A stretch of 51,764 nt of DNA from Desulfobacteraceae bacterium. GTDB taxonomy: Bacteria; Desulfobacterota; Desulfobacteria; Desulfobacterales; ETH-SRB1. The notes under the pieces are model-generated. The model did no database searches and was not told the origin of the DNA. It worked only from the letters and a program-made list of their open reading frames with translations. The stretch spans positions 1-51,764 of the forward strand of contig JABZFQ010000263.1 in the NCBI GenBank assembly GCA_014237365.1. Direction: 5' to 3'. Below are positions 6,671 to 40,486 of this stretch, piece after piece. How positions within the stretch are numbered: the first letter of the stretch is position 1; every line of letters begins with the position of its first letter. The translations under genes and the position numbers were made by a program.

Positions 6671-6742
6671 AACGGTTCACAGTTCACAGTTCACAGTTTT
6701 TTTTAACAACCGTTAACTGTAAACTGTTAACCGTGAACCGTT
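6671..6742. repeat. Heptamer tandem-repeat hairpin: (GTTCACA)3 arm against an AACCGTT/AACTGTA arm
   Basis: aacggttcacagttcacagttcacagtt ... aaccgttaactgtaaactgttaaccgtgaaccgtt are imperfect reverse complements. The right arm encodes the last residues (TVHG*) of moaC. Confidence 0.8.
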
Positions 6743-7865: not shown

Positions 7866-8462
7866 TCATTTAATAATTTCTTCTGCCCTGGCCAGATCAT
7901 CAGGAGTATTAATATTAAAAAAAGAAATCAGATCAGGATCCTTTTCACGTAAAATATTTTCAGGAAGCTTTTTAACTCTTACCTTTTTAAAGAACTGTTT
8001 AATCTCAAGCTCTTTTTGAATCAGATTATTTTCAATTGGCTTAAGACATCTTTTTGAATATACCGCACAAAGCGGTTCCATCCCATTTAAAGTTTCCGGT
8101 ATAATAACGTCAACTCCCGTTTCTATACTATTAATAACAGTTTCAACCAACTCCTTTTTCAGGAATGGTATATCGCATGCCGTAATAAATGTATAAAAAT
8201 TATTTGAAAAAAAAAGTCCTGCATGTATTCCTGTTAAAGAACTTCTAAACGGGAATATATCAGACACAATATGTAAATCCCATTCAAGATATTTAAGCGG
8301 GTCATTGGCAACCAGGATAATCTCATCAAAAAGGGAATCAAATATTTCATATGTTCTGTCCAGAATACGCTTTCCGCCAACACTTATAAATGCTTTATTC
8401 ATGCCCGAAAAACGCTTATTATGTCCGCCCGCCAATATCACTCCTGTACATGGAAATTTCAT
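7866..8462 (-). CDS. mobA: Molybdenum cofactor guanylyltransferase MobA
   Basis: 198 aa. The GVILAGGHNKRFSG motif indicates an NTP-transferase fold. Confidence 0.85.
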   Translation of the reverse strand: MKFPCTGVILAGGHNKRFSGMNKAFISVGGKRILDRTYEIFDSLFDEIILVANDPLKYLEWDLHIVSDIFPFRSSLTGIHAGLFFSNNFYTFITACDIPFLKKELVETVINSIETGVDVIIPETLNGMEPLCAVYSKRCLKPIENNLIQKELEIKQFFKKVRVKKLPENILREKDPDLISFFNINTPDDLARAEEIIK

Positions 8463-8554
8463 TACATCAAGACCTTTTAGAACGGTTAACGGTTAACGGT
8501 TAATCAAAATAGATAAAATAAAAGCCAAAATCAAGGCAATTTCAGGTTTTTTAA

Positions 8555-8601
8555 TTTTGATAAATTTATAACTCTTGATATTAACCTACTTAATGATATA
8601 A
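8555..8601 (+). repeat. Left copy of a ~47-bp direct repeat bracketing the GC-richer island
   Basis: TTTTGATAAATTTATAACTCTTGATATTAACCTACTTAATGATATAA compared with 16935-16982, TTTTGATAAATTTACAAAATTTTGATATTAACTTATTTAATGATATAA. Confidence 0.8.
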
Positions 8602-8602
8602 T
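8575..8602 (+). promoter_or_regulatory. Sigma70-like promoter inside the left direct repeat
   Basis: TTGATA, 16 nt, TATAAT. Confidence 0.35.
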
Positions 8603-8649
8603 TAATATTTTGACAAAAACTCAAAACACCTGAAATTATAGTCAGTTGG

Positions 8650-8865
8650 ATGCTATTGCTTTCTGACTTTCCAGGATACGGCCTGGTAACACTTTTTGGC
8701 AGCGATGATTATGAGTCGGAAGAACTGCTTGCTTACGAACTAGGGTACCGCCTCCAACCAAATAGCCAATTTTCTCTTGACGTTGCAGCTTTTTTTAATA
8801 ATTATAGCTATCTGCGTACTTTAGAGCAGGACGATTCTAAGTTGGGCAATACACGTGGTTTTTAA
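8650..8865 (+). pseudogene. Fragment of a TonB-dependent receptor paralog
   Basis: GSDDYESEELLAYELGYRLQPNSQFSLDVAAFFNNYSYLR aligns with GDPDYESEELLAYELGYRFVPANALSIDLAIFYNDYDNLR of the full receptor at 9057-11132. Only 71 aa are present. Confidence 0.7.
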
Positions 8866-9056
8866 GAGACACGGCTGGAGGTTGACCCCGATATTATTGC
8901 TTTTGCTTTTCCTCAACGCCGGGCTTAATCCGACTGCGCAGGCCTCTTTGCGCGAATATGCCATCAAGGCTTCTTAAACTAGCCAGAATCGTCAACGTAG
9001 AACCCGAAGGCAGGAAAAAGTGATACAGCAAAAAATCATTAAAAAGAGGTATAAAG

Positions 9057-11132
9057 ATGTATCATGTTAAACATCCAGAGATCCAAAGATTGATTTCATG
9101 CTCCATTTTTCGCATCACTATGAGTACCGTGCTGGTTACAATTATGTTATTGTGCTCCATGGCCGGCAGCGCAAAAGCAGCAGCCATTGCGTCTACGGAT
9201 CTGACCGAGCTCAGTCTTGAGGAGTTGATGAATATCGAAATCACCTCGGTTTCCAAAAAGCCTGAGAGACTCGCTGATGCCGTGGCTGCTATCTTTGTTA
9301 TCAGTCAGGATGATATTCGTCGCTCCGGGGTGACAAGTATTCCGGAAGCGCTCCGCATGGTACCCGGCATTAATGTAGCGCGCATTGATTCAAACAAGTG
9401 GGCGATCACTTCCCGAGGTTTCAACGGCCGCTTTGCCAACAACCTTTTGGTGCTCATTGACGGCCGTATCGTCTACACCCCTTCCTGTTCAGGCGTTTAC
9501 TGGGAGGTGCAGGATACGCTCATGGAAGACGTGGATCGTATTGAGGTCATCCGGGGGCCAGGTGCCACCTTGTGGGGCGCTAACGCGGTCAACGGGGTCA
9601 TCAACATCATCACGAAATCTGTAGCAGACACCCAGGGTGGCCTGGTGGCCATAGGCACAGGCACTGAGGAGCTTGGCTTTGGCGGTGTTCGTTATGGAAC
9701 GGTCATGGGGGAAGCCACCTACGGGCGCTTTTATGCCAAGGGTTTCAAACGGGATGAGTTTGTCCATACCACTGGTGACGATGCAGGCGACGACTGGAAT
9801 ATGCTGCGCGGCGGATTCCGATTGGACTCACTGCTATACGGCCATGCCCCAGTGACCGTGCAGGGAGATATCTACCAGGGCAACATCAACCAGACATTGA
9901 ACCTGGCCACGTTGTCTGTGCCTTTCTCTCAGACATTCGAGGATAAGTCCGAGGTTTCCGGCTGGAACCTGCTGACACACTGGCAGCATACCCTCTCTCC
10001 GACCTCTGATTTTACCTTGCAGATCTACTACGACCGGACCGACCGGGACGATGCTGTCTATGGTGAGATCCGGGATACCTTTGATATTAACTTTCAACAC
10101 CAGTTTGCAGCCGGTGAGCGACACGACGTCATCTGGGGGCTTGGTTATCGCTATACCCATGACGACTTCAGCAATTCAGGCACCTTTAGTTTAGATCCGG
10201 ACAGCCGCAACGACGAGCTTTTCAGCGCCTTTTTGCAGGACAAAATCACGCTTATAAAAAACTGCCTGTGGCTGACCATAGGTTCGAAGTTTGAACACAA
10301 CGACTACACAGGATTCGAGATCCAGCCAAACGGTCGGCTGTTCTGGGCCCCCTATCCGAAGCATAAGCTATGGGCGGCTGTTTCGCGGGCAGTGCGAACA
10401 CCGGCCCGGTTCGAGCACGATGTAAGGGTTCTCAATCTCGTGTTACCACCCTTCAGCCCTAATAACCCCAACTCATTCCCAATAGCGTTGACCGTTATGG
10501 GCGATCCTGATTACGAATCAGAAGAACTGCTGGCCTATGAGCTGGGTTACCGGTTTGTACCGGCCAATGCCTTGTCGATAGACCTGGCTATCTTTTATAA
10601 CGATTATGATAATCTTCGCAGGTCTGAAATGGAAACACGAGTGTTCCAAGACATATACATGGAACAACCGCTACGGTTCGACAACGGGCTAAAGGGCAAG
10701 ACATACGGCCTTGAGCTGGCAGCGGTCTGGCAGGCCGCAGACTGGTGGCGGTGGGACATAGCCTACAGCTACCTCCGGATCGACATCGACACACGCTTTG
10801 AAAAGGACAATATACAAAATAGCGATGGCCCACAACACCAGGCATCCCTCCGTTCTGCCGTAAAACTCAGTAAAGACCTGGACCTTGATTTCTGGCTTCG
10901 TTATGTGGACGATGTCAAGGCGGTTATCGTCAAGTCACAGTCGCGGCTGGAAATTGACAGTTATTTCACGCTTGATATCCGCCTGGCCTGGCAGCTCAAC
11001 GATAATGTGGAGATTGCTCTGGTGGGACAAAACCTGCTGGACGACAAACATCCTGAATACGTGCATGAGAACTTCACTCTGCCCACAGAGGTCGAACGTG
11101 GTATGTATGGAAAGGTAACCTGGCAATTTTAA
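9057..11132 (+). CDS. TonB-dependent outer-membrane receptor
   Basis: Signal peptide. Plug-domain motifs (VISQDDIRRSG, IEVIRGPGATLWGANAVNGVINIITK). Long beta-barrel ending in the terminal aromatic TWQF. GAGG ribosome-binding site 7 nt upstream. Confidence 0.9.
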   Translation: MYHVKHPEIQRLISCSIFRITMSTVLVTIMLLCSMAGSAKAAAIASTDLTELSLEELMNIEITSVSKKPERLADAVAAIFVISQDDIRRSGVTSIPEALRMVPGINVARIDSNKWAITSRGFNGRFANNLLVLIDGRIVYTPSCSGVYWEVQDTLMEDVDRIEVIRGPGATLWGANAVNGVINIITKSVADTQGGLVAIGTGTEELGFGGVRYGTVMGEATYGRFYAKGFKRDEFVHTTGDDAGDDWNMLRGGFRLDSLLYGHAPVTVQGDIYQGNINQTLNLATLSVPFSQTFEDKSEVSGWNLLTHWQHTLSPTSDFTLQIYYDRTDRDDAVYGEIRDTFDINFQHQFAAGERHDVIWGLGYRYTHDDFSNSGTFSLDPDSRNDELFSAFLQDKITLIKNCLWLTIGSKFEHNDYTGFEIQPNGRLFWAPYPKHKLWAAVSRAVRTPARFEHDVRVLNLVLPPFSPNNPNSFPIALTVMGDPDYESEELLAYELGYRFVPANALSIDLAIFYNDYDNLRRSEMETRVFQDIYMEQPLRFDNGLKGKTYGLELAAVWQAADWWRWDIAYSYLRIDIDTRFEKDNIQNSDGPQHQASLRSAVKLSKDLDLDFWLRYVDDVKAVIVKSQSRLEIDSYFTLDIRLAWQLNDNVEIALVGQNLLDDKHPEYVHENFTLPTEVERGMYGKVTWQF

Positions 11133-11165
11133 CTCGTAGATTGCAGCATTGAAACAAAAGATTCT

Positions 11166-11714
11166 ATGACCAACAGATGTTTTGCAGCGCTTATCTTTAT
11201 TGCGATACTCGTCAGTGCGGCTACTCCTTTATCCGCCAGAGCGGAAGAACCGCTTTTGCACGAGTATCGAATCAAGGCGGCCTTTCTGTATAATTTTGCC
11301 AAGTTTATTCAATGGCCGGAATTGGTTTTCATTGATCCTGAACGTACTGTTTTCATTTGCATTCTTGGTAATGACCCGATCATGGGTGCTTTGCAAAGCC
11401 TTAGCGCCAAAACGGTTCAAGGACGGAGGATTGTTATAAGCCACAGCAAGAATCTCAGGTCAGTCAAGGGATGTCACATTCTATTCGTGACAAAATCGGA
11501 AAAAAGCAGGATCAAACATACTATAAGCAAATTCAAAGGCAGCCCTGTTTTAACTGTGAGTGACATGGATGATTTTGTGAAAGCAGGCGGCATGATCGGT
11601 ATGGTTCGAGTAGAAAACAAAATTCGATTTCAAATCAACCTTGTTTCAGCACAGGATTCCGGGCTGAAGATCAGCTCCCAACTTCTCAAATTGGCGCAAG
11701 ATGTGATTAAATAG
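11166..11714 (+). CDS. YfiR-family / DUF4154 periplasmic protein
   Basis: Signal peptide followed by YRIKAAFLYNFAKFIQWP, and a C-terminal RFQINLVSAQDSGLKISSQLLKLA pattern. Confidence 0.75.
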   Translation: MTNRCFAALIFIAILVSAATPLSARAEEPLLHEYRIKAAFLYNFAKFIQWPELVFIDPERTVFICILGNDPIMGALQSLSAKTVQGRRIVISHSKNLRSVKGCHILFVTKSEKSRIKHTISKFKGSPVLTVSDMDDFVKAGGMIGMVRVENKIRFQINLVSAQDSGLKISSQLLKLAQDVIK

Positions 11715-11778
11715 TGCCCGAACGAAAACTAGAAAATTTTTTCAAGTTCAAGGAAGGCACTAAATAGCCGGAGAGACC

Positions 11779-14652
11779 ATGCAACTATTCCAAAAAAGTT
11801 CCATCAAAGACAAGATAACATTGTTGATGGTTTTTACAAGCGTCGTTGTTTTGACGATTGCCACAATGTCTTTTATGCTCTTCCAGGTTGTCAGCATATC
11901 CAGGGCTTCTCTGCAAGAGCTTTCCACTTTGGCAAAAACCATTGGAATTAATAGCAGAGCGCCTCTTACCTTTAATGACCGCACATCGGCAATAGAAACG
12001 CTATCTGCCTTGAGCGCTGTGCCTGACGTAACTACAGCCACTATCTTTACTCCCGATGGAAGTCCGTTTGCCTGTTACAAAAGAGCCGGTAAGCAGGAAA
12101 AGCCTTTGTCTGAAAAGGATAACTCTATTGAAGCAAATTTTTCCAGAGTAAAAATAGAGGCAGATGAAGGTATGTTTGAGGAATTCCCTCTATTTGATAG
12201 CCACTTTGATGTATTTGAAGATATCCATTTGGACGGTGAAATAATTGGGGTGGTGTGGATTGAAAAAGATATGTCGTATATTTATAAGAGCCTTGAAGCT
12301 TATGCGATCATTGCTGTTTCAGCTCTTCTGTTTACGACCTTGATCGCTTCTTTGCTTTCCCTGAAACTTCAGCCGATCATTTCACGGCCCATCATTGGCC
12401 TGGCCAAGACCATGAAAAGTGTCTCCAGCGAAAAGAATTATTCTATCCGGGCGGTCAAGGAGACTGAGGACGAACTTGGCACCCTTATTGACGGATTTAA
12501 TGAAATGCTCAAACAAATTCAGTTTCGGGACAATGAGCTGGAAGAACACCGGGCAAATCTCAAAAATCAGGTAGCTCTTCGGACAAAGGAGCTTTCTATA
12601 GCCAACACCAAACTACAAGATACAGTCAAGGTACTTCAACAGGCCAAAGAAGCCGCAGAAGCGGCCAGCCGGGCCAAAAGCGAGTTTCTGGCCACCATGA
12701 GTCACGAAATACGCACACCCATGAACGGGATGCTGGGCATGACCGAGTTATTGCTCGGCACAAAGCTTTCCGGCAGGCAGCGCGGGTTCGCACAAACCAT
12801 CCAGCGTTCCGGTGACTCCTTGCTGAGGATCATTAATGATATTCTTGACTTTTCCAAGATTGAAGCCGGTAAGCTGATGATTGATACCCATAATTTCAAC
12901 CTGCGGGACATGATAGAGGAAACAGCGGCAATGCTGGCAGAACGGGCGCACATTAAGGGATTGGAACTGGCCACTGTACTGCCTGTTGACCTGCCGGTGG
13001 CGCTATCAGGTGACTCGTCTCGCCTGCGGCAGATACTCGTAAACCTGCTCGGCAATGCAATCAAGTTCACCGACAGAGGCGAGGTTGTGATACGTGTGGA
13101 AATGCTTGATCAGACCAAAGATAAGATTCGCTTGCGTTTCGAGGTTGCAGATACCGGTATTGGCATCACACCGGAGATCCAGGCACGGATTTTTGATGCC
13201 TTTTCCCAGGCAGATGGATCCACTACCCGCGAGTACGGCGGCACTGGCCTGGGTCTAGCCATCTCCCGCAGGCTGGTGAAGCTGATGGGTGGCAAGATGG
13301 GCGTTAAAAGTGAACCAGGCAGGGGTTCTGTCTTCTGGTTCACGATTAGCTTTAAACGCCGGATCGCAAAAAAACATAACGGCCTGCATCCAGTAGAAGA
13401 CCTTCGCGGAATGCGCATTTTGATCGTGGACGACAACGCGACCAACCGAGAGATCCTGAAAAACCAGGTGATTGCCTGGGGAATGCAGCACGGCATCGCT
13501 GAAAATGGCGCTCAGGCCATTGAGATGCTGCGCAATGCTGCTTTAAAGGGCGAGGCATACGATATAGCCCTGCTTGATTGGCACATGCCTGAGATGGGCG
13601 GTATTGAGCTTGCGCACAGGCTGCGTTCAGATTCGCACATTCCTGAAATGCATCTAATAATGCTCAGCTCCGCTGCTTTTGATAATGAAGAAGCAGCAAG
13701 AGCAACTGACGCTGGTGTCCATCGTTACCTGAACAAACCGGTATGTCAGTCCGAGCTCTATGATTGCCTGATAAATACTATGAGCACACCGGGCGCTGGC
13801 AATCTGCAAACAGACGATGCGCAAACAATGGAAGTCGGAGCTGTATTTGACGCACACATCCTGCTTGCCGAAGATAACCTGATGAACCAGGAAGTAGCAC
13901 TGAATATGTTGGAACTGATGGGCTGCCAGGTTAACCTAGTAGAAAACGGGCAGGAGGCAGTAGAGGCAGCCGCAAAAATCGTCTTTGATCTGATCTTGAT
14001 GGACTATCATATGCCGGTGATGAACGGATTGACAGCAACAGATAGAATCCGAAAGCAGGAACAGGCTGGCAGCAATAGCCAACGTGTTCCCATTATTGCG
14101 CTCACAGCAGATGTACAAAAAGGTATGCAGGAGCAGTGTCTGGCTGTGGGCATGGATGACTTTTTGAGCAAGCCTTTTACCCAGGATCAGCTACAGGCAG
14201 TATTATCGCTGTGGCTGGATCAGCATGAGGAATCACCTGATCCAAAGGAAATAGTCAGATCAATTGCACCGGATGAACAAAAAGAAACAGAACCATTGCT
14301 GGAACAGGAAACCCTGAACAGGATCCGTGCACTTCAGCGGCCTGGCAAGCCCAATGTTCTGGGCAAAATCATCAATTTTTACCTGGAAAACTCACCCGGG
14401 TTGATAAAGACCGTGCGCAAGTCTGTGGAACAAGGAGATGGCGCTGCCCTTTGCGAAGCAGCCCACAGCCTGAAGTCAAGCAGTGCCAACTTAGGCGCAG
14501 TCAGCATGGCAGACGTGTGCAAGAAACTGGAAGAAATGGGGCGAGAGGAACGTATAGACGCGGCAAAAGCGCTGATTGGCCGCATTGAATCAGAATATAA
14601 ATTGGCCAGTGCAACGTTGGCTGACGAGTTGGGGAGAATATCTGATGCGTAA
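11779..14652 (+). CDS. Hybrid sensor histidine kinase: N-terminal CHASE8-like sensor, HAMP, HisKA, HATPase, two REC domains, Hpt
   Basis: H-box [12 protein letters not shown] boxes ([22 protein letters not shown]). Two receiver segments (ILIVDDN..., ILLAEDN...DYHMP). C-terminal Hpt motif ([13 protein letters not shown]). Confidence 0.9.
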
Positions 14653-16798
14653 GTCCGATGATCAAAAAAAGCAGCCGGTTGTCCTGGTAGTGGACGATGA
14701 TATTGCCGTGCGCCTGTTGATCTGTGAGTCGCTGGAACAGGCAGGCATGATTGTTAAAGAGGCCGAAAACGGTCTTGAAGCCCTGTCTGTCTTTAAACGG
14801 GTGCGGCCTGACATAGTAATGATGGATGTGAAGATGCCCAAAATGGACGGATTTACTGCCTGCGAAAGATTGCGGCAACTACCTGGAGGAGACGAAGTAT
14901 CCATAGTTATGGTCACAGGCCTCGACGATGTAAAGTCCATCCAGCAAGCTTATGATGCGGGTGCCACGGACTTTATTACCAAGCCTGTCAACTGGTCTAT
15001 CCTGAATCATCGGGTCCGCTATCTGCTGCGAGCCAGAGAAGCCTTTCGGGATTTATGCCGGAGTGAAGATAGGCTGACTCAGGCGCAACGTGTTGCCAAT
15101 CTTGGAAACTGGGAGTGGAACATCGTGGACAACAAACTTGACTGGTCAGGCGAAATCTATAGCATCTTCGGTCTTGAACCACAGGCATTTGGCAGAACCT
15201 ACGAGGCTTTTCTCAGATTGGTGCATCCTGAGGATCGGGGATATATTGAAAATGCCGTTGACAGGGCTTTGCATGAAAACAAGCCATACAGTATCGACCA
15301 CCGAATTATCCTGCCGGATAAAACCGAGCGCACGGTTCATGAGCGGGCCCAGGTAATTTTTGATGAAACCGGCAAACCGGTCAAAATGCATGGTATAGTA
15401 CAGGATATAACTAAACATAAAAAAACCGAGGCAAAGATCCGGTTTCTTGCCTACTACGATGTCCTAACCGGCTTGCCCAACCGCCAGCTTTTTAAAGAAT
15501 ACTCCATTCGGGCGATCCGCATGGCACAACGTGATGGGACAAAGCTAGCTATAATATTCATGGATCTGGATCACTTCAAACGCATTAATGATACACTTGG
15601 ACACAATGCCGGCGATAAACTGTTAGAAAAGATTTCCGAAAATATGATGGTCGTCATTCGCGCCTCAGATATCGTTACCAGGATAGACAACGAAAGCCGG
15701 TCTAAGACATCGCTATCGCGTCTGGGCGGCGATGAATTTACAATCCTGCTCCCTGATTTAACCGAAATACAACAGGCTGCAACAGTAGCAAAGCGCATAA
15801 TAAAATGCTTGAGTCTGCCGGTGAAGGTTGCCGGTCGGGAATTGTATGTTACGGGCAGTATCGGAATTGCCGTCTACCCTGATGACGGCGAGGATATCGA
15901 CACACTCTTAAAAAATGCAGATACTGCTATGTATCATGCAAAGGATGCAGGCAGAAACAATTTTCAATTTTACGCGAAATATATGAACGAACTCACGCTG
16001 TCAAGGCTCAATATGGAGGCCGAGCTGAAGAAAGCGTTGGAGAGGAACGAATTCATACTCTATTATCAGCCGCAGGTGGAAGTCGCAACATCCACGATAG
16101 TTGGTGTGGAAGCGCTGATTCGCTGGGAACACCCTGAGAGTGGGATAGTATCCCCGGCAGAGTTTATTCCCATTGCGGAAGAAACCGGACTGATTATCCC
16201 TATCGGGGAATGGGTGTTGCAAACAGCCTGTCCGCAGATGGCAGTTTGGCATAAGGCTGGTTTCAATTCGCTGCGCATAGGAATCAATCTGTCCAGCAAC
16301 CAGTTCAGACAAGGGGATATTGTCAAGTCCATAAAAAATATTCTTGCTACTACGGGCTTAGATCCTCAGCATCTGGAGCTTGAGATTACAGAGAGTATCA
16401 TTATGCATGACGTGGAGGAAGCTATAGCCACGCTATGGAAACTGAAAGAAATGGGATTAAATCTGTCGATCGATGATTTTGGAACCGGCTATTCCTCAAT
16501 GAACTACTTGAAGCGATTTCCGCTGGATACCTTGAAAATAGATCAAAGTTTTATTAAAGATATCATGATGGATCCTAATGACCAAGCAATTACAAAGGCC
16601 ACCATCGGCCTGGCAAGGGGTCTGGGTCTGACAACGATTGCCGAAGGCGTAGAAACGGAAGAGCAGTTGACATTTCTGCGTAAACAAGGCTGTGACCAAA
16701 TTCAAGGCTATTTCTTTAGTAAACCAGTGCCGACCGAAAAAGTGGAGCAACTTTTTTTGCGTTCTGACATTGTAAAGGCAAAGCCAAAACATAACTAG
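14645..16798 (+). CDS. Response regulator with REC-PAS-GGDEF-EAL architecture (c-di-GMP turnover)
   Basis: Start chosen at ATG 14645 (MRKSDD..., GGGGA ribosome-binding site, 8-nt overlap with the kinase stop). VLVVDDD...DVKMPKMDG receiver, GGDEF ([10 protein letters not shown]), EAL (EALIRWEHP). Confidence 0.9.
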
Positions 16799-16934
16799 CC
16801 GTTATGACATATTTTTCAAGCAGTGCTGAGACTTCCGGATGGGATTTCCTATCAGCTTATCTCCCTCCTTTCTATGCAAGCTTAAATCCCCGCAGACGGA
16901 GCGAATTGCTCACAAAAAGTTAGAAACAAATAAA

Positions 16935-16982
16935 TTTTGATAAATTTACAAAATTTTGATATTAACTTATTTAATGATATAA
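16935..16982 (+). repeat. Right copy of the ~47-bp direct repeat bracketing the GC-richer island
   Basis: See 8555-8601. It lies at the point where base composition returns to AT-rich. Confidence 0.8.
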
Positions 16983-16983
16983 A
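16956..16983 (+). promoter_or_regulatory. Sigma70-like promoter inside the right direct repeat, candidate pyrR promoter
   Basis: TTGATA, 16 nt, TATAAA. About 250 nt upstream of pyrR. Confidence 0.35.
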
Positions 16984-17057
16984 AAGGTATTAATAATTGG
17001 CATCCTTTACGACAAGTCAAAAGTAGTTTACACTTTGTTGATCTTGTATTTTGGCAG

Positions 17058-17131
17058 TGAAATTTGAAACTGGAAATTGGAAAAAATACTAAGATGTAGA
17101 TGCGTTACCTAATTTCAAATTTCCAGTTTCA
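17058..17131. repeat. GAAATTG/GAAACTG-type short-repeat hairpin element (second copy of the family)
   Basis: tgaaatttgaaactggaaattgg ... cctaatttcaaatttccagtttca. 13-bp perfect stem tgaaactggaaat/atttccagtttca. Confidence 0.7.
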
Positions 17132-17231
17132 ACATCGACATTCAATTCGATAATACACGCTTTTTTGAAAAAAGTGTAAACTGGTGAATGAAGAATGCCT
17201 AATAATCTATATGAATATTCTGGAGAGAACA

Positions 17232-17768
17232 ATGAGCGAATACGATACAATTCTGGATGCATCTGATATAGACCGTATACTTTCAAGAATCACTCATAAA
17301 ATTCTTGAAATACACAAGGGCACTGAGAACCTTACACTTATAGGCATTCATACACGGGGAGTTTATATCGCGAAACATATCCAGTCCATGATTAATGAAA
17401 TTGAAGGAATTGAAATACCGACAGGCAATATTGATATAACTTTGTACCGTGATGACTGGACAAGAATCAGCCACCACCCCATCGTCCAGGCAACAGATAT
17501 ATCCTTTCCTATTGATGGGAAACAAATTATTTTAATAGATGATGTTCTTTTTACAGGTCGAACAATAAGAGCTGCCATGGATGCTATTATTGATTTTGGC
17601 AGGCCTGATCGCATTGAACTTGCGGTGCTTGTTGATAGAGGCCACAGAGAACTTCCAATTCAGGCCAACTATGTTGGAAAATTTATTGAAACAAGGCGCT
17701 CAGAAAGTGTAAATGTTTTGCTCACCGAACATGATGGACAAGACAGGGTTGTCATAGAAAAGCATTGA
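17232..17768 (+). CDS. pyrR: Bifunctional pyrimidine regulatory protein / uracil phosphoribosyltransferase PyrR
   Basis: Start at ATG 17232 (MSEYDTILDASDIDRIL) after GGAGAG. PRPP-binding motif ILIDDVLFTGRTIRAA. DRGHRELPIQANYVGK. Confidence 0.9.
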   Translation: MSEYDTILDASDIDRILSRITHKILEIHKGTENLTLIGIHTRGVYIAKHIQSMINEIEGIEIPTGNIDITLYRDDWTRISHHPIVQATDISFPIDGKQIILIDDVLFTGRTIRAAMDAIIDFGRPDRIELAVLVDRGHRELPIQANYVGKFIETRRSESVNVLLTEHDGQDRVVIEKH

Positions 17769-17785
17769 TATAGACTTTCAGATAA

Positions 17786-17969
17786 GGAACGGAGACGAAA
17801 TAACTTCCCCAACTATGCATCATCATAGCTTCAGGCCACTTTTGCCCGATCTCAAATCACAAAAATATCAAAATAGATAGGCTATTCCATCAACTTTTGT
17901 AATTTGAGATCGAACAAATTTGACCCAAATCTATGCGCCTAATTGGGGAAGTTATTTCGTCCCCGTTCC
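17786..17969 (-). mobile_element. MITE-A copy 4, full length (184 bp), flanked by TAA/TAA
   Basis: Both 27-bp terminal repeats are present. TAA at 17783-17785 and 17970-17972. Reverse orientation relative to copy 2. Confidence 0.9.
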
Positions 17970-18042
17970 TAATTCATTTCACTGCGTTATCAGTCAAAAT
18001 CCTTGTAAAATGAATTATCTGAAAATCTACAGGAAGAGAAAC

Positions 18043-18546
18043 ATGAGCATAATAGAACATAAAAAAAACGCTCCCGGGAAAATCAAACTTGGAATTATAT
18101 CTGTTTCAAGCACTAGATCATTAAAAGATGATAAAAGCGGATTATGGATAAACAATAGAGCCTTAAAAGAAGGGCACAAAGTTGTATTTCATCACATTAT
18201 ACAAGATGAAATACAAGCCATAACCGTGATAATACTTGACGTTATATGCAGTCATGAACCTCAGCTTATATTAATGACAGGGGGAACTGGTATAAGCAGC
18301 AAAGATGTAACTATTGAAGCGGTGATTCCATTATTTGAAAAGGAGCTAACAGCATTCGGGCCACTTTTTGCTCAGCTCAGCTTTGAAAAAATTGATTCCG
18401 CTGCTCTTTTATCACGGGCGACTGCAGGCATAATAAACAAAACAATACTATTTTGTCTGCCTGGCAGCCTTAAAGCATGCAAGCTCGCATGCAAGCATCT
18501 TATCTTTCCTGAATTGGGACATCTTGTTAAGCATGTTCAGGAATAA
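18043..18546 (+). CDS. moaB: Molybdenum cofactor biosynthesis protein B (MoaB/MogA family)
   Basis: Start at ATG 18043 (MSIIEHKK) after AGGAAGAGA. MTGGTGIS motif. The longer tracked ORF (17920) begins inside the MITE. Confidence 0.85.
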   Translation: MSIIEHKKNAPGKIKLGIISVSSTRSLKDDKSGLWINNRALKEGHKVVFHHIIQDEIQAITVIILDVICSHEPQLILMTGGTGISSKDVTIEAVIPLFEKELTAFGPLFAQLSFEKIDSAALLSRATAGIINKTILFCLPGSLKACKLACKHLIFPELGHLVKHVQE

Positions 18547-18722: not shown

Positions 18723-18810
18723 CTATTCCATCCACTTTTGTGATCTGAGATCAAATAAATTCGACCCAAATCTGTGCACCTACTTGGGGAAGTTAATTCG
18801 TCCACGTTCC
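18723..18810 (-). mobile_element. MITE-A copy 5, half copy abutting the IS3 remnant
   Basis: ctattccatccacttttgtgatctgagatc...ggggaagttaattcgtccacgttcc followed by TTA. Confidence 0.8.
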
Positions 18811-19118
18811 TTATATTGAAAACTCAACAAAAACCCAGATTAATATTGACTTAATGGAGTACACTAAGATACAAAAATTAAATTAGCGCACCTTTGGGAT
18901 ATAAAAAAGCCTTGTAAAGTTAAGGAATTCTGCCCATTGTATAAGTTCCTTAACTTTAGGCACTTTCAGCCTATCAAGCCGTCTATCCTATGCTACTGAA
19001 TTCCTTAGACATAACATGAAAATTTCTATGCTATAAATTTATATATTATTAAACCATACTTTCCTTTTTTTGATATACAAAAAAATTCTGAAAAGCCGGG
19101 AAGGAAAATTCATAGATA

Positions 19119-20375: not shown

Positions 20376-20423
20376 AATATTGGTCGAGTGGGAAAATGGT
20401 TGAATGGTTGACTATTCTACTAA

Positions 20424-20576
20424 GGAACGTGGACGAATTAACTTCCGCAAGTAGGCGCACAGATTTGGGTCGAATTTGTTCGATCTCAGATCACAAAAGT
20501 TGAAGGAATAGCTTACCTATTTCAATATTTTTGTGATTTGAGACCGGACAAAGGCGGCCTGAAGCTGTGATGCATA
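20424..20576 (+). mobile_element. MITE-A copy 6, lacking the right terminal repeat
   Basis: TAA then GGAACGTGGACGAATTAACTTCCGCAAGTAGGCGCAC... through ...CTGAAGCTGTGATGCATA. It ends 12 nt before the aspS start. Confidence 0.85.
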
Positions 20577-22571: not shown

Positions 22572-22794
22572 GTTTGTGTGAAAAATTATGTGAGAAAAAT
22601 TTATTTCGCATGATTTGGTAGTCCCAACAAAACAGTGCAGGTGATTAAAAAGTATCTCTAAAAATATGAATAAAAAAGATTTTTGCTAAAAAATTAAGAT
22701 TGTTATAGACTAAAAGGAATATATTTTGTATGAGCATGGTTAAAACTCTATTCAAAGGAACGCAACCATGCAAAATCCAGCAAATACAGCCTTA

Positions 22795-22910
22795 GGAACG
22801 TGGACGAAATAACTTCCCCAACTATGCATCACAGATTCAGGCCACCTTTGCCCGATCTCAAATCACAAAAATATTGAAATAGCTAACTATTCCATCAACT
22901 TTTGTGATCT
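22795..22910 (-). mobile_element. MITE-A copy 7, truncated
   Basis: TTA then GGAACGTGGACGAAATAACTTCCCCAACTATGCATCA... through ...CAACTTTTGTGATCT. Confidence 0.85.
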
Positions 22911-22944
22911 GCACCCCCCATCACTAATCTCAACTAAAACTCAG

Positions 22945-25830: not shown

Positions 25831-25914
25831 TAATCCCTAATCCCTAATCCCTAATCCCCTAAATCCCTAAATCCCTAATCCCTGCCCTTAATCTGCCCTT
25901 AATCTGCCCTTACT
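25831..25914. repeat. Tandem repeat block: (TAATCCC)4, (TAAATCCC)2, TAATCCC, then (CTGCCCTTAAT)3
   Basis: Read directly from the sequence. On the minus (sense) strand it is (GGGATTA)n with at least 8 G3 tracts. The last 11-mer overlaps the rlpA stop. Confidence 0.9.
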
Positions 25915-29532: not shown

Positions 29533-29600
29533 GGAACGTGGACGAATTAACTTCCCCAAATCTGTGCGCCTACTTGGGGAAGTTAATTCGTCCACGTTCC
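29533..29600. mobile_element. MITE-A copy 8: 68-bp internally deleted derivative forming a perfect 26-bp-stem hairpin
   Basis: GGAACGTGGACGAATTAACTTCCCCA, 16 nt, TGGGGAAGTTAATTCGTCCACGTTCC. TTA on the left and TTT on the right. Confidence 0.85.
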
Positions 29601-29697
29601 TTTAGGTATGAAGAAAACTATAACAATAAAGTTAATTTGTAAAGAAAATATCTCGGACGACCTCCTATAGGCAGAATGGATTGCGTTTGATTTAGAA

Positions 29698-30861
29698 ATG
29701 CCGTATTGCACAAATATGATTAAAGGCCCCAAGGATTCATTCAAATTCATAATCGGTTCTCAGTATTTTTTATATTTTGGCATTATGGGCATTTCTTTGC
29801 CCTATTTTAATTTATACTGTTATCATCTTGATTTTACCGGTTTTCAAATAGGACTCCTGTCTGCATTTAGAACGGTGATGATAGTTTTGTTCCCTTTATT
29901 TTGGGGGGCCCTGGCAGACCACTTTCAGATCAGGAGACCGATATATATTTTATGCAATTTTGTGAGCACCGGGATATGGGCATTTTATTTATATTTCACT
30001 GATTTCTGGTTAATGCTGGTTATTACCGTGTTGTACGGAATTTTTTACGCTCCCATTATATCTTTTCTTGAAGCCTTTACTATGGATGTACTGGGCAAAG
30101 AGAAAAAAAGTTATGGGAAGATTAGAGCATGGGGATCAATTTCCTTTATCGTTATTGTAATAGTCATCGGCAGTATAATTGATATTTTTTCAATTGAGAT
30201 TATTATTGCTGTAATTCTTGCCGGCTCCCTGCTTCAGGCATTTATTTCTTTTAGAATCCCCGATGTTGTCATTTCAAAGAAGGAGTCTTTTACTCCTAAG
30301 ACAAAAGTTCTATTAAAAAGGCGTGTAGCCGTCTTCCTGTTTTGCGCTTTTTTAATGCTTGTAAGCCATGGAACCTACTATGCTTTTTTTTCCATCCATT
30401 TAGACAGCCTTGGCTATGGTAAAACATTTATCGGATTTGCCTGGGCTATGGCGTCGATTGCAGAAATACTTGTAATGATAAACTCAGACAAAATATTCAA
30501 GCGTTTTTCCCTAGAAAATGTTCTGGTATTTTCATTTATGATAGCAACATTAAGATGGTTAATACTTTTCTTTGTAAAATCTCCGGTTTTAATCCTGATA
30601 TCACAGATTTTTCATGCCATCACATATGGTGCATTTCATATAGCAAGTATATTGTATATTGATTTGCTAACTCCTGATGAAGCCAAAACTCTGGGACAGG
30701 CAGCAAATAATGCTGTAACTTACGGCCTGGGGATGACGGTTGGATTTCTCTTTAACGGCTATTTATATGAAAGTGTGGGCTTGTTTAATTTGTTTATAAT
30801 AAGCAGTCTTATTGCACTGTCTGGAGGTGTGATTTTTAAATTAGGAACACGGACGAAATAA
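29698..30861 (+). CDS. MFS transporter (12-TM, MFS_1_like type)
   Basis: 387 aa, hydrophobic throughout. The last 5 codons and the stop (GTRTK*) lie inside MITE-A copy 9. Confidence 0.75.
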   Translation: MPYCTNMIKGPKDSFKFIIGSQYFLYFGIMGISLPYFNLYCYHLDFTGFQIGLLSAFRTVMIVLFPLFWGALADHFQIRRPIYILCNFVSTGIWAFYLYFTDFWLMLVITVLYGIFYAPIISFLEAFTMDVLGKEKKSYGKIRAWGSISFIVIVIVIGSIIDIFSIEIIIAVILAGSLLQAFISFRIPDVVISKKESFTPKTKVLLKRRVAVFLFCAFLMLVSHGTYYAFFSIHLDSLGYGKTFIGFAWAMASIAEILVMINSDKIFKRFSLENVLVFSFMIATLRWLILFFVKSPVLILISQIFHAITYGAFHIASILYIDLLTPDEAKTLGQAANNAVTYGLGMTVGFLFNGYLYESVGLFNLFIISSLIALSGGVIFKLGTRTK

Positions 30862-30987
30862 CTTCCCCAAGCAGGCGCATAGATTTGGGTCAGATTTGTT
30901 TTATCTTAAATCACAAAAGTTGATAGAATAGCAAGCTATTTTGATATTTTTGGGATTTAAAATCGGGCAAAGATGGCCTGAAGTTGT
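30844..30987 (+). mobile_element. MITE-A copy 9, diverged, lacking the right terminal repeat
   Basis: TTA then GGAACACGGACGAAATAACTTCCCCAAGCAGGCGCATAGATTTGGGTCAG... through ...GGCCTGAAGTTGT. Confidence 0.8.
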
Positions 30988-33024: not shown

Positions 33025-33100
33025 TAGCACTGGTGGAATAATGGGAAGTCATATATATAAAAACTATTATGGATAAAATTTGAAAGGATTTTGTATTATT

Positions 33101-33679
33101 ATGTATTTTGTTAATTATCGAGGGCCGTTTGGATTTATTAAACCTTGGACCGCAGTGAGAGATAGTGAAACTTTTAGCCAACAGTTTTTAACACCTTCGA
33201 TAGTGGCAGGTATTGAAAGGAAACTGTTTCCCGATCTTTTATCTGAGCCATATGACTTGTATATAATTAAAAGGCACAGGTTGTCTTACAAACAAATTTC
33301 TCATCAGCAAGAACAAATCCAGCCCAGGGGATGGAATAAAAAAAACAACTGCTTTTACAGGCCATATTCGATAATAGTTAGGGGTGTTCTTATAGAGCCT
33401 GATTTGTATCTTGGATTTGACAATGAAAAAGATGCTATACATGCTGCAAAGCAACATATATGCGTTTGCAGGAATGAAGATATTTTATTTCCCAATGAAT
33501 CAATAATTAAAATTTCTGAGGAAGACTTTGATACTCAGGAGGATATTTTTAATGGTTTTGAATTAATATTTGAACAAAACGAACAGGCCTTTTTATTAGG
33601 ATATAACCGTTTTGATGATAATAAACCTATGTATGGATGGCTTAAAATCATCGGCAACCCCGTAAAATATATATGTTGA
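33101..33679 (+). CDS. cas5: Cas5 family protein
   Basis: The N-terminus YRGPFGFIKPWTAVRDSETFSQQFLTPSIVAGIERKLF resembles the Cas5 (I-C-like) glycine/aromatic plus TPSxxxGI motif. 192 aa from ATG 33101. Overlaps the cas3 start. Confidence 0.65.
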   Translation: MYFVNYRGPFGFIKPWTAVRDSETFSQQFLTPSIVAGIERKLFPDLLSEPYDLYIIKRHRLSYKQISHQQEQIQPRGWNKKNNCFYRPYSIIVRGVLIEPDLYLGFDNEKDAIHAAKQHICVCRNEDILFPNESIIKISEEDFDTQEDIFNGFELIFEQNEQAFLLGYNRFDDNKPMYGWLKIIGNPVKYIC

Positions 33680-35841
33680 TTATGGACATTTGTCATCACA
33701 TAAAAGCAAAAGGAGCTCCTGAGTTCACAACCTTATATGATCATCTTTATCATGTTAGATTGGCAATTGAAAAATTTGCTGAATGTTTGGATTTTGATGT
33801 TGAAATTGCAAAAATAGGGGCTGTTCTCCATGATATTGGAAAAGCAAGTCCAATTTTTCAAGAAAGACTTGTATCCAAATATAGGACTGGTCAGTCAACA
33901 TTCCGCCATGAAATTGCTTCATGCTTTTTTATTTCTCTAATCAAAGAGAAACACCAACCTCAGCTAATTGAAATGGTAATTGCTCATCACAAATCAATTG
34001 AAGGGGATAAAAAACTGAAGGGGATACTTGATCTTGAAGAAAATGAAGGTGATATTTTTGAATCCCACATAAAAAACTGGGATATTTGGAAACCGGATGC
34101 CCTGAAAATACTCTCTGCCTTTGGTATTAAAACCAGAGATATTTCTTATGACGAAGCTCATGATAATTATCTTAAAGTGTTAGACTATTGCGAGAAAAGA
34201 GTTGAGGATTATGGTTATTCAAGATGGCGTGGGCTACTTATGTCTGCGGATTATTTTGCTTCTGCCCTGTCTGAATCCACAAAGAAGTATTTGAAAAATA
34301 CATTTAAAAAACCTGTCTTGAATTTTTATAATAGAAAATCAGGATTTTATCCCTTGTCGCTGAAAAAAGCTATATCTGAAAAACCACACACAATTGTTGT
34401 TGCATGTACCGGTGCAGGAAAAACAGACTATCTTTTCAGGAGATGCAAGGGACGAGTATTTTACACACTTCCGTTTCAGGCATCAATTAATGCAATGTAT
34501 CAACGGGTTAAAAATGAGTTATTACCTTCAAATCCAGACCTGGATATTCGATTGCTTCATTCTTCTTCAAAAATAGCAGTTAATGATGAATCACAAGAAG
34601 ACATCGTTTTACAACGGCTCATTGGCTCCAGTGTCAAAATTCTAACTCCCTATCAATTAGCTTCTATCATATTCGGCACAAGGGGCTTTGAATTTCAAAT
34701 TGAAGATATCAAAGGTTGTGATGTCATTCTTGATGAAATTCATACTTATACAGGTGTTTCAAAGGCAATAGCTCTGAAAATTGTGGAAGCGCTGAATTAT
34801 TTTGGCTGTCGTATCCATATTGGCACAGCTACCATGCCTTCTTCATTATATGAAAAAATTATAACATTGCTGGGGAAAAATTCTATTGAGCAGGTTTTTT
34901 TGGATAAAACAGAGCTTGAAAAATTTGATCGTCATAAACTTTTTAAGATCAATTCATGGGAGGATTCAGACCAAATAATTGCTGATGCTGTCAAAAAAAA
35001 ACAAAAAGTATTGCTTATTTGTAACCGTGTAAAATCAGCTCAAAATGTTTTAATTAGAGCAAAGAACCTATTTCCTGATATTCCATCCCTTCTTATTCAC
35101 AGCAGATTTAAACGCGGAGACAGGTATGAAAAAGAAAAGAAACTTTTAGGCGTTGATAAAAATGGACACCCAACAGGTGAATTTAACACTTCATTGGATG
35201 CTTGTATCGTGGTCTCCACACAGGTTGTTGAAGTCAGCCTGGATATCAGTTTCGATCTTATGATTACGGAAACAGCCCCTATTGATTCCTTAATTCAACG
35301 TTTTGGAAGGGTGAACAGAAAAAGATCATCATCTACTATTGGCGTTTATAAGCCAATATATTTAATCGCGCCTCCAGAAGATAAAAAAAAAGCCGCTCCT
35401 TATGATTTGGAAATATTGAAAAATAGTTTTGAAGTCCTGGAACATAATAGCATTCTCCACGAATCTGATTATCAAAAAAAGATCGATCATGTTTTTCCTG
35501 CAATATCCAGTTTAGACATAGAAACTCATACAGCATTTAAAGGAGATGGCAAATGGAATATTGAAGCGCTCACTCACAGGGACAACTCTATATTGCTCAA
35601 TCTGCTTGAAATTGACAGCGTAAACTGCATTATTGAATCTGACTGTGAAAAGTACAAAGATGCAAACTATAAGGAACAAACCCTGATAGAAATACCAGTA
35701 AGATATTATTCTATTAAAGACTTCTCCCAGTTGAATTGTGGCAGTGACCCATTTGTTATACCAGATCAAGGATACTCTGATGAAATGGGGTTGGAAATCG
35801 ACAAGGCTAAATTACATCAAACAGACTTAAATTTTATTTGA
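33673..35841 (+). CDS. cas3: Cas3 HD nuclease-helicase fusion
   Basis: HD motifs (HLYHV, LHDIGK, FRHE, AHHKS). Helicase motifs ACTGAGKTD, VILDEIH, QRFGRVNRK. Confidence 0.9.
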   Translation: MLIMDICHHIKAKGAPEFTTLYDHLYHVRLAIEKFAECLDFDVEIAKIGAVLHDIGKASPIFQERLVSKYRTGQSTFRHEIASCFFISLIKEKHQPQLIEMVIAHHKSIEGDKKLKGILDLEENEGDIFESHIKNWDIWKPDALKILSAFGIKTRDISYDEAHDNYLKVLDYCEKRVEDYGYSRWRGLLMSADYFASALSESTKKYLKNTFKKPVLNFYNRKSGFYPLSLKKAISEKPHTIVVACTGAGKTDYLFRRCKGRVFYTLPFQASINAMYQRVKNELLPSNPDLDIRLLHSSSKIAVNDESQEDIVLQRLIGSSVKILTPYQLASIIFGTRGFEFQIEDIKGCDVILDEIHTYTGVSKAIALKIVEALNYFGCRIHIGTATMPSSLYEKIITLLGKNSIEQVFLDKTELEKFDRHKLFKINSWEDSDQIIADAVKKKQKVLLICNRVKSAQNVLIRAKNLFPDIPSLLIHSRFKRGDRYEKEKKLLGVDKNGHPTGEFNTSLDACIVVSTQVVEVSLDISFDLMITETAPIDSLIQRFGRVNRKRSSSTIGVYKPIYLIAPPEDKKKAAPYDLEILKNSFEVLEHNSILHESDYQKKIDHVFPAISSLDIETHTAFKGDGKWNIEALTHRDNSILLNLLEIDSVNCIIESDCEKYKDANYKEQTLIEIPVRYYSIKDFSQLNCGSDPFVIPDQGYSDEMGLEIDKAKLHQTDLNFI

Positions 35842-35853
35842 AAAGATATTATT

Positions 35854-37251: not shown

Positions 37252-37272
37252 CCAATGCGTTCAGGAGAGACT

Positions 37273-38331: not shown

Positions 38332-38378
38332 TTTTAAATTTAAAATATTAAATACATGATTTATTATGAGGACATATT

Positions 38379-39176
38379 TTGCGTATTATAATAACTGCTA
38401 CAAGTGAACAGCCATCTTTTTTCCCATACAATTATCAGTACGCGGTACATTCAGCTATATACTCTCTAATGAATGAGTCTTCGGCTGAATATTCAGAATT
38501 TTTACATGATAATGGTTATATAAAAGATGGAATTAATAAAAAATTCAAATTTTTCACCTTCTCGAAACTTAAATTTTTTCCAAAAAAAAGAGATAGAAAA
38601 GGTTTTTATAATGTGAAAAAGATTCAGTTTGTATTTACTTCTTCTATGGATGAAAGCCTCAAACATTTAATATTAGGCATTTTTTCCAATCAAAAAATTA
38701 AATTAATATTAAATGGGCAAAAATGTGTTTTTACTATAGTTAATGTAGATATACAACCGGAACCAATCTTTAGCAATCGTGAAAAATTTATTTGTCTCTC
38801 ACCAATAGCTGTTACAACAATAAAGATCGACGAAAATGGGAAACGGAAGCAGCATTTCCTGAATTATATGATCCCAGAAGAAAGAGATCGTTTTGTTGAT
38901 AATCTTAAAAAAAATCTGATCAGGAAGTATGAAACGATTAATAATATTAAATATCAAAATTTAAACGATCACTTTAACTTTAATTTCGATATTTATTACA
39001 TAACAAAACGAAAAGGTAATATTTCAAAGTTAATGGAGTTTAAAAATAGAATTAAAATAAAAGCTATGGAGGCTCCTTTCAGCATTGAAGCTGATTCGGA
39101 ATTAATAAAGCTCGGTTACGAATGTGGCTGGGGTGAAAAAAATAGCGCTGGTTTTGGTTGTGTTGAACAAATTTAA
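38379..39176 (+). CDS. cas6: Cas6 crRNA endoribonuclease
   Basis: TTG start after GAGGA. The N-terminal PYNYQYAVHSAIY motif and the C-terminal Gly-rich loop GWGEKNSAGFGCV are typical of Cas6. Confidence 0.8.
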   Translation: MRIIITATSEQPSFFPYNYQYAVHSAIYSLMNESSAEYSEFLHDNGYIKDGINKKFKFFTFSKLKFFPKKRDRKGFYNVKKIQFVFTSSMDESLKHLILGIFSNQKIKLILNGQKCVFTIVNVDIQPEPIFSNREKFICLSPIAVTTIKIDENGKRKQHFLNYMIPEERDRFVDNLKKNLIRKYETINNIKYQNLNDHFNFNFDIYYITKRKGNISKLMEFKNRIKIKAMEAPFSIEADSELIKLGYECGWGEKNSAGFGCVEQI

Positions 39177-40279: not shown

Positions 40280-40306
40280 GCGCTGGTAGGAAAAAATTAT
40301 TAGTTA

Positions 40307-40419: not shown

Positions 40420-40486
40420 GTCTTGTTCATTGATTTTAAGGAAGCATTTGACAACACTACCCGTATTTTTGAAGGAAATAGCTGAT

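Follow-up and report, generated by a model that had tools for sequence, protein, structure and literature searches.

The mobA-pyrR region of contig JABZFQ010000263.1 (assembly GCA_014237365.1), analysed here over its whole length of 51,764 nucleotides (nt) and referred to as the window, raises the question of how a block of signalling genes came to lie between two native genes, bracketed by direct repeats that each carry a promoter-like element. The original prediction for this DNA regarded the block as an island that was acquired horizontally and inserted into the pyrR promoter region, duplicating the promoter so that its left copy could drive the new genes. The explanation that now appears best overall, with a probability of roughly two in three, is that a foreign block was joined to the locus without a recombinase, that the two flanking repeats are different alleles of one promoter, that the block is a promoter-less operon read from the left copy, and that its products work in a YfiBNR-like signalling system.

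The stretch 8602-16932 is compositionally foreign and was acquired horizontally; it occupies the intergenic region between the divergent genes mobA and pyrR. The G+C (GC) content in 1-kb windows rises from 0.36-0.38 outside the block to 0.43-0.54 at about 8.6-16.9 kb and then returns to 0.37. The GC content at third codon positions (GC3) of the four island genes is 0.61 (receptor), 0.46, 0.52 and 0.50, compared with a host-type mean of 0.334 (sd 0.048, max 0.424) for the 30 other open reading frames (ORFs) of at least 150 aa in the window (Mann-Whitney p = 2e-5). Synonymous codon choice is also shifted across the island (CTG 0.37 vs 0.19 and AGA 0.12 vs 0.33 elsewhere in the window). All three measures confirm the GC-richer signalling block that had been proposed, and its position between molybdenum cofactor genes and pyrR-moaB is likewise borne out by Pfam and NCBIfam, with mobA on the left and pyrR and moaB on the right (Table 1).

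The repeats, first described as about 47 bp long (8555-8601 and 16935-16982), proved slightly longer. The best local alignment pairs 8553-8601 with 16933-16982, with 44 of 50 aligned columns identical, five substitutions and one 1-nt indel. Its score of 68 compares with 21.1+-2.9 (max 34) in 2000 shuffles, and the 27-nt core of the repeat occurs exactly twice in the window, 0.00 occurrences being expected by chance; a chance repeat is thereby ruled out. The promoter-like element was seen in both copies as predicted, in the left as TTGATA-16 nt-TATAAT (11 of 12 consensus matches) and in the right as TTGATA-16 nt-TATAAA, each preceded by TG. The right copy has the ancestral form, the final T of the left-copy TATAAT being supplied by the island side of the junction, where the string reads as the left copy followed by TTAATATTTTGAC. 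The promoter scan demands a T at position 6 of the -10 element, hence the right copy was not listed by it. The core of the element is kept in three lineages that were found via PyrR and not via the motif (comparison loci L190, L198 and L206; in L198 and L206 as CTTGAT, about 17 nt, TGATATAAA), and is conserved well beyond the close relatives.

The relatives by MobA are 'Deltaproteobacteria' metagenome-assembled genomes (MAGs) from methane seeps, with 93-96% amino-acid identity for L001-L003. Two of the MobA-relative genomes have been named as Seep-SRB1a ('Syntrophophila', GTDB family ETH-SRB1, genus B13-G4), namely sp. 5 SM7059A and sp. 2 CR9063A (PMC10553843). The MobA relatives place the host in Seep-SRB1a ('Ca. 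Syntrophophila', family ETH-SRB1), a partner of archaea that oxidise methane, and not in the cyanobacteria, as its heptamer repeats and low GC had at first suggested.

The site was found empty, with one 49-nt promoter copy, in every close relative sampled but one. In eight species-representative genomes (L001-L005 together with L187, L192 and L217, the latter three found via PyrR) mobA adjoins pyrR with a single repeat copy, whose left context in L001-L005 matches that of the window's left copy and whose right context matches that of the right copy. A scan of Joint Genome Institute (JGI) metagenomes with the core motif returned 14 contigs, all of them arranged as mobA, one copy and pyrR. The structure of L192 is that of the window minus the island, including a 201-nt miniature inverted-repeat transposable element (MITE) before pyrR; in other words, the window equals L192 plus the block and a second promoter copy. 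The adjacency of mobA and pyrR is also kept in outgroups with 55-71% MobA identity and is ancestral, and gene trees put the window in the midst of genomes with an empty site. Given the empty sites, the outgroup adjacency and the nested tree position, the insertion is derived. The check proposed for the locus, a search for relatives in which mobA abuts pyrR with a single repeat, was thus positive, and horizontal acquisition with insertion in the pyrR promoter region is upheld by foreign composition and empty sites together.

The module in this and other genomes

The receptor, YfiR-like and kinase genes are adjacent and all on the plus strand. The receptor scores 685.1 bits on NCBIfam model NF053590 (cutoff 645) and the YfiR-like protein 154.1 bits on NF053591 (cutoff 125), both above cutoff, while the N-terminal domain of the kinase covers the full length of NF053592 ('sensor histidine kinase, YfiR-like protein-associated') with 184.8 bits (cutoff 194, E = 1.6e-54).

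The first 450 bp of the block consist of a MITE fragment and the deleted relic of a preceding module. The MITE fragment is 91.5-98% identical (59 and 46 nt) to sequence at another locus of L003 and 86-95% identical (59 and 42 nt) to sequence in L006. Behind it, three collinear BLAST blocks match L161 at 252-411 (90%), 898-1040 (87%) and 1437-1532 (83%), with matching blocks in L160; a global alignment of the relic with L161 was uninformative and the BLAST blocks were used instead. They correspond to the C-terminal fragment of a receptor (8679-8838), the start of a second DUF4154 gene (8832-8971) and the end of that gene plus spacer (8964-9056). Between these pieces about 486 and 396 bp have been deleted, and a single ORF of 71 aa is all that is left. 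Homology to other island copies begins 11 nt before the receptor ATG. A relic of an upstream pair, and homology starting this close to the receptor, indicate that the block is the 5'-truncated, promoter-less tail of a longer operon.

Such longer operons do exist. In L160 (European Nucleotide Archive (ENA) ERZ26872907) three tandem rounds of the receptor-DUF4154-CHASE8-kinase trio stand before a single GGDEF-EAL regulator, and in L161 (ENA ERZ26872897) a further receptor/DUF4154 pair precedes the final four genes. The regulator follows the last kinase with the same 8-nt overlap in L161, L163, L166 and L168, and the receptor, DUF4154 protein and kinase occurred together in every homologous context examined. 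The block is therefore the 3' portion of a larger array in which modules stand in tandem, each comprising a TOL_0244 receptor, a TOL_0243 YfiR-like protein and a CHASE8 hybrid kinase, closed by the REC-PAS-GGDEF-EAL regulator. Tandem trios ahead of one regulator suggest that several sensors feed one output.

Homologues of the kinase in the protein database form a graded series of 88, 86, 82, 76, 62, 58 and about 50% identity, mostly from Desulfobacterota and then from Gammaproteobacteria, in which a donor could not be identified. A search of species-representative genomes with the kinase yielded two close copies only, and the same gene neighbourhood was found at 31-43% identity in a Cycloclasticus genome. 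The GC content of the module exceeds that of its flanks in every genome examined (0.48 vs 0.41, 0.53 vs 0.44-0.48 and 0.52 vs 0.45-0.48). Its distribution is patchy: CSMAG_2456 has the module at another locus and its mobA-pyrR site is empty.

In Eth-SRB1 strain BFWG172, the receptor, YfiR-like and kinase genes lie beside mobA with a different junction and no left repeat. The GGDEF-EAL gene was not found in this locus, and pyrR is on another contig (L190, JAJSZP010000128), preceded by the end of an IS1595-like transposase and by a truncated IS4-like one. A reading of the BFWG172 locus as an inversion of the same insertion could not be sustained, given the separate contig and the insertion sequence (IS) relics at pyrR and the failure to find the GGDEF-EAL gene. 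The kinase gene of this strain (L006/L081, JAJSZP010000038) is directly followed by an inverted homologue of window positions 51764-50333. The IS-end segment of the pyrR contig also occurs upstream of the island in L163 and L006.

The ends of the module differ in all five contexts, with no conserved ends and the coding block alone common to all, and no flanking repeats were found around it in the three other contexts. The block may thus be regarded as a cargo operon and not a self-mobile element, and the repeats appear to belong to the mobA-pyrR locus and not to a mobile element. According to the original prediction, relatives carrying the block without flanking repeats, or an unremarkable composition, would speak against it. 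The same operon does occur without these repeats, both beside mobA in BFWG172 (with its different junction) and in three other contexts, but the composition does deviate.

Promoter alleles and competing explanations

The two repeat copies have different affinities. The left copy differs at one of 49 positions from the single copy of L001, L002 and L192, whereas the right copy differs from the single copy of relatives at four positions and by an inserted C, and its variants (TTTACAAAA, TTATTT) recur in L173, L177 and L183 and in the Eth-SRB1 allele of L190. The flanking genes show a parallel pattern. Synonymous divergence (dS) from SM7059A, HYP3_UM_29 and L178 is 0.04-0.12 for rmuC, moaC, moaE and mobA and 0.26-0.36 for pyrR and moaB, a roughly threefold excess of the right flank over the left, while these nearest relatives differ mutually by 0.07-0.14 on both sides. 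Such a rise in dS cannot reflect relaxed selection, so that a recombination breakpoint coincides with the island. The dS values of hisS and aspS (0.17-0.23) and tatC (0.29-0.30) suggest that the window backbone is itself somewhat divergent. In that case the close tract would be a patch of some 4.5 kb that stops at the left copy, the point at which an empty-site donor would cease to be homologous.

The present arrangement thus looks like a recombination mosaic. Whichever side was imported, the most plausible reading of the copies is as a pair of alleles joined by homologous exchange and not as a fresh target-site duplication. The earlier idea of an insertion that duplicated the promoter holds to the extent that two promoter copies flank the block; a simple target-site duplication is disfavoured by the differences between the copies (five positions and an indel), the right-copy variants from other lineages and the roughly threefold jump in dS. 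In the proposed sequence of events, the block would have been captured by recombinase-independent or repeat (MITE)-assisted joining and later exchanged among related Seep-SRB1a and Eth-SRB1 lineages by homologous recombination. The left copy would be the local allele as far as homology with empty-site genomes extends, and the right copy would have come from a more divergent lineage along with pyrR-moaB.

The operon presumably arrived promoter-less and in the same direction as pyrR. It would then be transcribed from the left copy, in which a perfect TATAAT was made at the junction, or from a second promoter-like match (TTGACA-18-AATTAT, 8610-8639) inside the MITE fragment, while the right copy would keep pyrR-moaB expressed. 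The terminator scan found no terminator-like site between the island and pyrR, so read-through from the island into pyrR would be possible. The operon probably depends on the left promoter copy, and the suggestion that this copy could drive the island has gained support from the 5' truncation of the block and its want of a conserved promoter of its own.

Several points weigh against this explanation. A consensus scan gives as many promoter-like sites in shuffled as in real sequence, and the kinase N-terminal domain is slightly under the NF053592 cutoff (184.8 vs 194). The direction of recombination is ambiguous: if the window backbone is divergent, the import may have been the rmuC-mobA tract. 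Mosaicism is widespread in these genomes, which makes a breakpoint at the island less special, and pyrR and moaB are short genes with correspondingly noisy dS. The chemistry that first made the 49-bp duplication is not recoverable from these data. Finally, Logan contigs from three runs end at 8623 and 8628 in the MITE fragment, and the left junction (8602 to about 8628) is seen in the window alone; exact-protein look-ups of MobA and PyrR, aimed at this junction, returned no matches.

The last point bears on the alternative that survives best, although it is still unlikely, namely that the left junction is an assembly chimera which passes from an empty-site strain (contributing mobA, promoter and MITE) to an island-bearing strain at a 46-nt dispersed repeat, with the repeat and the divergence jump as artefacts. 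Besides the ends of the Logan contigs in a repeat element, this is favoured by the grouping of the left flank with other strains than the right flank, and by a heptamer-rich element of about 165 nt that the nearest left-flank relatives (L002, L178, L180 and L184) carry right after GATATAA, at the same breakpoint as the left junction of the island. The shared repeat, however, is at most about 46 nt, below the final k-mers of common metagenome assemblers, and tatC, to the left of the close tract, is divergent again, which indicates a patch and not a single switch. Logan assemblies of four runs moreover match the window without mismatch (100% identity) at 8623-11741, 11729-16688 and 12056-17030, the last on contig L270 across the right junction, so that the whole island and its right junction are independently confirmed. 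Even under a chimera, the second strain would still have the island immediately before its pyrR promoter.

A slightly less probable alternative is a simple insertion in situ, with a fresh 49-bp target duplication made in this lineage by a staggered break or template switching and copy differences that arose later. From anatomy alone this is the most economical account, the window being exactly L192 with an insert and a 49-bp duplication. It has difficulty with five substitutions and one indel within 49 nt when no more than 3-4% separates the left flank from relatives with an empty site, with changes in the right copy that match the alleles of other lineages, and with the dS jump across the island.

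That the block is a self-mobile integrative island or transposon, with the 49-nt repeats as att sites or target-site duplication and the recombinase lost or acting in trans, appears improbable. Direct repeats around a block that is missing from relatives would fit such an element, as would the IS transposase relics beside the island or pyrR in two other genomes (L190, L163 and L006) and the abundance of MITEs in these genomes. As predicted, though, the window ORFs of at least 150 aa, those of the block included, contain no integrase or transposase. The sole transfer RNA (tRNA) gene of the window is at 22.4 kb, with none nearer to the island as a target, and no terminal inverted repeats were found at the island ends. 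The repeat far exceeds transposase duplications (2-14 bp) and consists of host promoter sequence in two copies unlike each other, and the ends that vary from genome to genome, with only the coding block in common, and the three other contexts without flanking repeats argue in the same direction.

An island ancestral to the clade, with the empty sites as precise deletions, can be dismissed: recombination between 49-nt repeats would indeed leave exactly one copy, and Eth-SRB1 BFWG172 also has the operon beside mobA, but mobA adjoins pyrR in outgroups down to 55% MobA identity, GC3 is still far from that of the host, the Eth-SRB1 junction is different and without a left repeat, and the window does not group as a sister of Eth-SRB1 and both have nearer relatives with empty sites, so that many independent precise losses would be needed, and repeated precise loss is not credible.

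Feature coordinates and small elements of the window

The features of the locus are collected in Table 1. The island tail had no match among the fetched loci, and no Rfam element, including a PyrR-binding leader, was found near the island.

Table 1. Coordinates of the island, its flanking genes and the small elements around it (window numbering).
Feature	Position	Strand	Remarks
mobA	7866-8462	minus	Left flank gene, reads away from island; Pfam NTP_transf_3
Left repeat copy, putative pyrR promoter segment	8553-8601	+	-35 TTGATA 8575-8580; -10 TATAAT 8597-8602; TG upstream
MITE-like element end fragment (TTTTGACAAAAACTCAAAACACCTGAAATTATAGTCAGTTGGATGCTATT)	8607-8657	+	About 50 nt; between left repeat copy and relic
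Decayed relic of TonB-receptor'/DUF4154' pair	8672-9056	+	Three collinear BLAST blocks to L161, matching blocks in L160
TonB-dependent outer-membrane receptor, TOL_0244 family	9057-11132	+	Signal peptide, plug, barrel; Pfam Plug, TonB_dep_Rec
Periplasmic YfiR-like protein (DUF4154), TOL_0243 family	11166-11714	+	Signal peptide; Pfam PF13689
Hybrid sensor kinase CHASE8-HAMP-HisKA-HATPase-REC-REC-Hpt	11779-14652	+	Pfam
Response regulator REC-PAS-GGDEF-EAL	14645-16798	+	ATG 14645 overlaps kinase stop by 8 nt
Island tail	16799-16932	+	134 nt
Right repeat copy, predicted promoter now serving pyrR-moaB	16933-16982	+	-35 TTGATA 16956-16961; -10 TATAAA 16978-16983
MITE-like insertion	16999-17199	.	201 nt between right promoter copy and pyrR; ends GGCATCC...GAATGCC; TAATAAT both sides
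pyrR	17211-17768	+	True ATG ~17211; native gene 3' of right promoter copy
Second MITE family, 37-nt inverted ends (GGAACG.GGACGAAATAACTTCCCCAA...)	17782-17973		Between pyrR and moaB
moaB	~18040-18546	+	Native gene after pyrR

The mobA-pyrR intergenic region is a hot spot for small insertions. The 201-nt MITE is absent in L001 and L003, occupies the same place in the empty-site locus L192, and lies inverted and upstream of the promoter in L174, L176, L179, L186, L187 and L217. The second MITE family has at least 10 copies or ends in intergenic regions of the window, others being at 1482-1534, 2564-2619, 18759-18817, 20421-20475, 22791-22911, 29555-29602, 30840-30895 and 40306-40358, and one copy abuts the GGDEF-EAL stop codon in L082/L163. 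Heptanucleotide tandem repeats (AACGGTT, GTTCACA, TAATCCC) were also observed in intergenic regions (8481-8503, 6675-6742 and 25831-25883), and in the array that separates mobA from the promoter both the copy number and the sequence (GGTTAAC, GGTTCAC, GGTTCAT) change from relative to relative.

Synteny with every relative examined ends right after moaB, at window position 18548, which forms a hypervariable junction. Most relatives differ mutually downstream of moaB, only L002 and L004 sharing sequence there, and hisS-aspS are on different contigs in other genomes. In MAG262 (L217 3779-4572), pyrR aligns as two overlapping pieces about 100 nt apart, suggesting an internal duplication or small insertion.

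The window further contains a type I CRISPR-Cas (clustered regularly interspaced short palindromic repeats) locus at 33080-45100, encoding Cas3 (33673-35841), Cas6 (38379-39176), Cas4 (41974-42468) and Cas1 (42486-43475), with repeats of about 30 nt (CTTTTAATCAGACCAGAATGGAATTGAAAC) around 44.3-45.1 kb. Within this region are a gene for a Schlafen/AlbA_2 protein (40430-41710) and, beside the cas genes, an ORF (39707-40279) with in-frame 21-nt and 54-nt tandem repeats at 39886-40102 (GATAAGCGTTTTGAGCAGGTG, six copies) that encodes a coiled-coil-like repetitive protein.

Proposed signalling function and comparison with known systems

CHASE8 is the periplasmic sensor domain of YfiN (PMC8085984). 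The PDB relatives of the YfiR-like protein are YfiR structures only (E = 4e-4), and its two cysteines align with Cys71 and Cys110 of YfiR, both structural cysteines. From the shared CHASE8 domain, and from YfiR as the sole solved relative with its cysteines aligned, a YfiBNR-like relief-of-repression switch can be inferred. The YfiR-like protein would keep the CHASE8 sensor inactive until its own sequestration or release at the outer membrane by the TonB-dependent receptor, acting in the place of YfiB; the kinase would then relay phosphate by way of REC and Hpt onto the REC domain of the GGDEF-EAL regulator, shifting the balance between synthesis and breakdown of cyclic diguanylate (c-di-GMP). 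The GGDEF, EAL, DDFGTG, EGVE and QGYFF motifs of this regulator are all intact and the RxxD I-site is absent at the canonical position immediately 5' of GGDEF; the protein is possibly bifunctional.

The likeness to YfiBNR (TpbB) of Pseudomonas aeruginosa and E. coli includes a gene for a YfiR-fold protein beside that of a CHASE8-HAMP inner-membrane sensor, an output in c-di-GMP and an outer-membrane partner encoded in the same operon (PMC2837407, PMC4655355, PMC4887326). The differences are also clear. YfiBNR has the OmpA/Pal-like lipoprotein YfiB, whereas the block holds no YfiB-like gene and has a TonB-dependent receptor instead. YfiN is a CHASE8-HAMP-GGDEF cyclase, whereas here CHASE8-HAMP is fused to HisKA-HATPase-REC-REC-Hpt and GGDEF is on a separate regulator, so that the island is likely to control c-di-GMP one step later than YfiBNR, by phosphorelay to a GGDEF-EAL response regulator. 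The YfiR-like protein also falls below the cutoff of the YfiR equivalog model NF053586 (52.2 vs 85).

Control of regulators of REC-(PAS)-GGDEF-EAL type by two-component systems is exemplified by PdeK/PdeR and RavS/RavR in Xanthomonas and Lpl0330/Lpl0329 in Legionella, in which a kinase phosphorylates a regulator that makes or hydrolyses c-di-GMP. The sensor domains of these kinases are of other types, the kinases are not known to have YfiR-like or TonB-receptor partners, and their likeness to the island is one of shared domains.

The closest match is the NCBIfam cassette NF053590/NF053591/NF053592, the same three adjacent genes being present in the same order in the island. Compared with this cassette, the island adds a translationally coupled REC-PAS-GGDEF-EAL regulator, and its relatives repeat the cassette in tandem. 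No experimental work on the TOL_0243/0244 cassette was found in the literature, the family being defined by bioinformatics, and a search for DUF4154 together with TonB receptors returned nothing relevant.

Seep-SRB1a bacteria form tight consortia with methane-oxidising archaea and cannot be cultured on their own, which makes a lineage-specific c-di-GMP module a concrete candidate for strain differences in aggregation. It is conceivable, if rather doubtful at present, that the receptor/YfiR-like/CHASE8-kinase trio represents a new pathway from the outer membrane to c-di-GMP, in which a TonB receptor serves as YfiB, tandem paralogous trios feed one GGDEF-EAL regulator, and patchy gain in partners of methane- and ethane-oxidising archaea tunes aggregate formation, the trio being wired in the present case to the promoter of a pyrimidine regulator. 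If this were true, patchy acquisition of the trio would let individual lineages tune the formation of aggregates.

As to its mode of arrival, the island shares with an integrase-mobilised island the flanking direct repeats and the one-copy empty site, but lacks a recombinase gene and constant ends. Transposase, inverted ends and a 2-14 bp duplication, as expected of a transposon or IS element, are all missing, with IS relics in other genomes only. Strain-specific islets are known to spread when homologous recombination takes place in conserved flanks, and a further known route is homology-facilitated illegitimate recombination. Like such islets, the island has no mobility genes, lies between conserved genes, has empty sites in relatives and shows discordant flank genealogies; it is unusual among them in being bracketed by a duplicated 49-nt piece of host promoter.

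The island is therefore a real but fairly ordinary strain-specific islet and a well-documented case of ordinary processes, unusual in its 49-nt promoter duplication, the apparent two-allele origin of the copies and the tandem sensor arrays in relatives. Current ideas are not overturned by it. It does offer a clean natural case in which an operon fragment that lacks a promoter stands behind a duplicated one of the host and no mobility gene is present, with dozens of empty-site genomes available for comparison, and it points to an uncharacterised TOL_0243/0244 cassette that resembles YfiBNR rebuilt around a TonB-dependent receptor and a phosphorelay.

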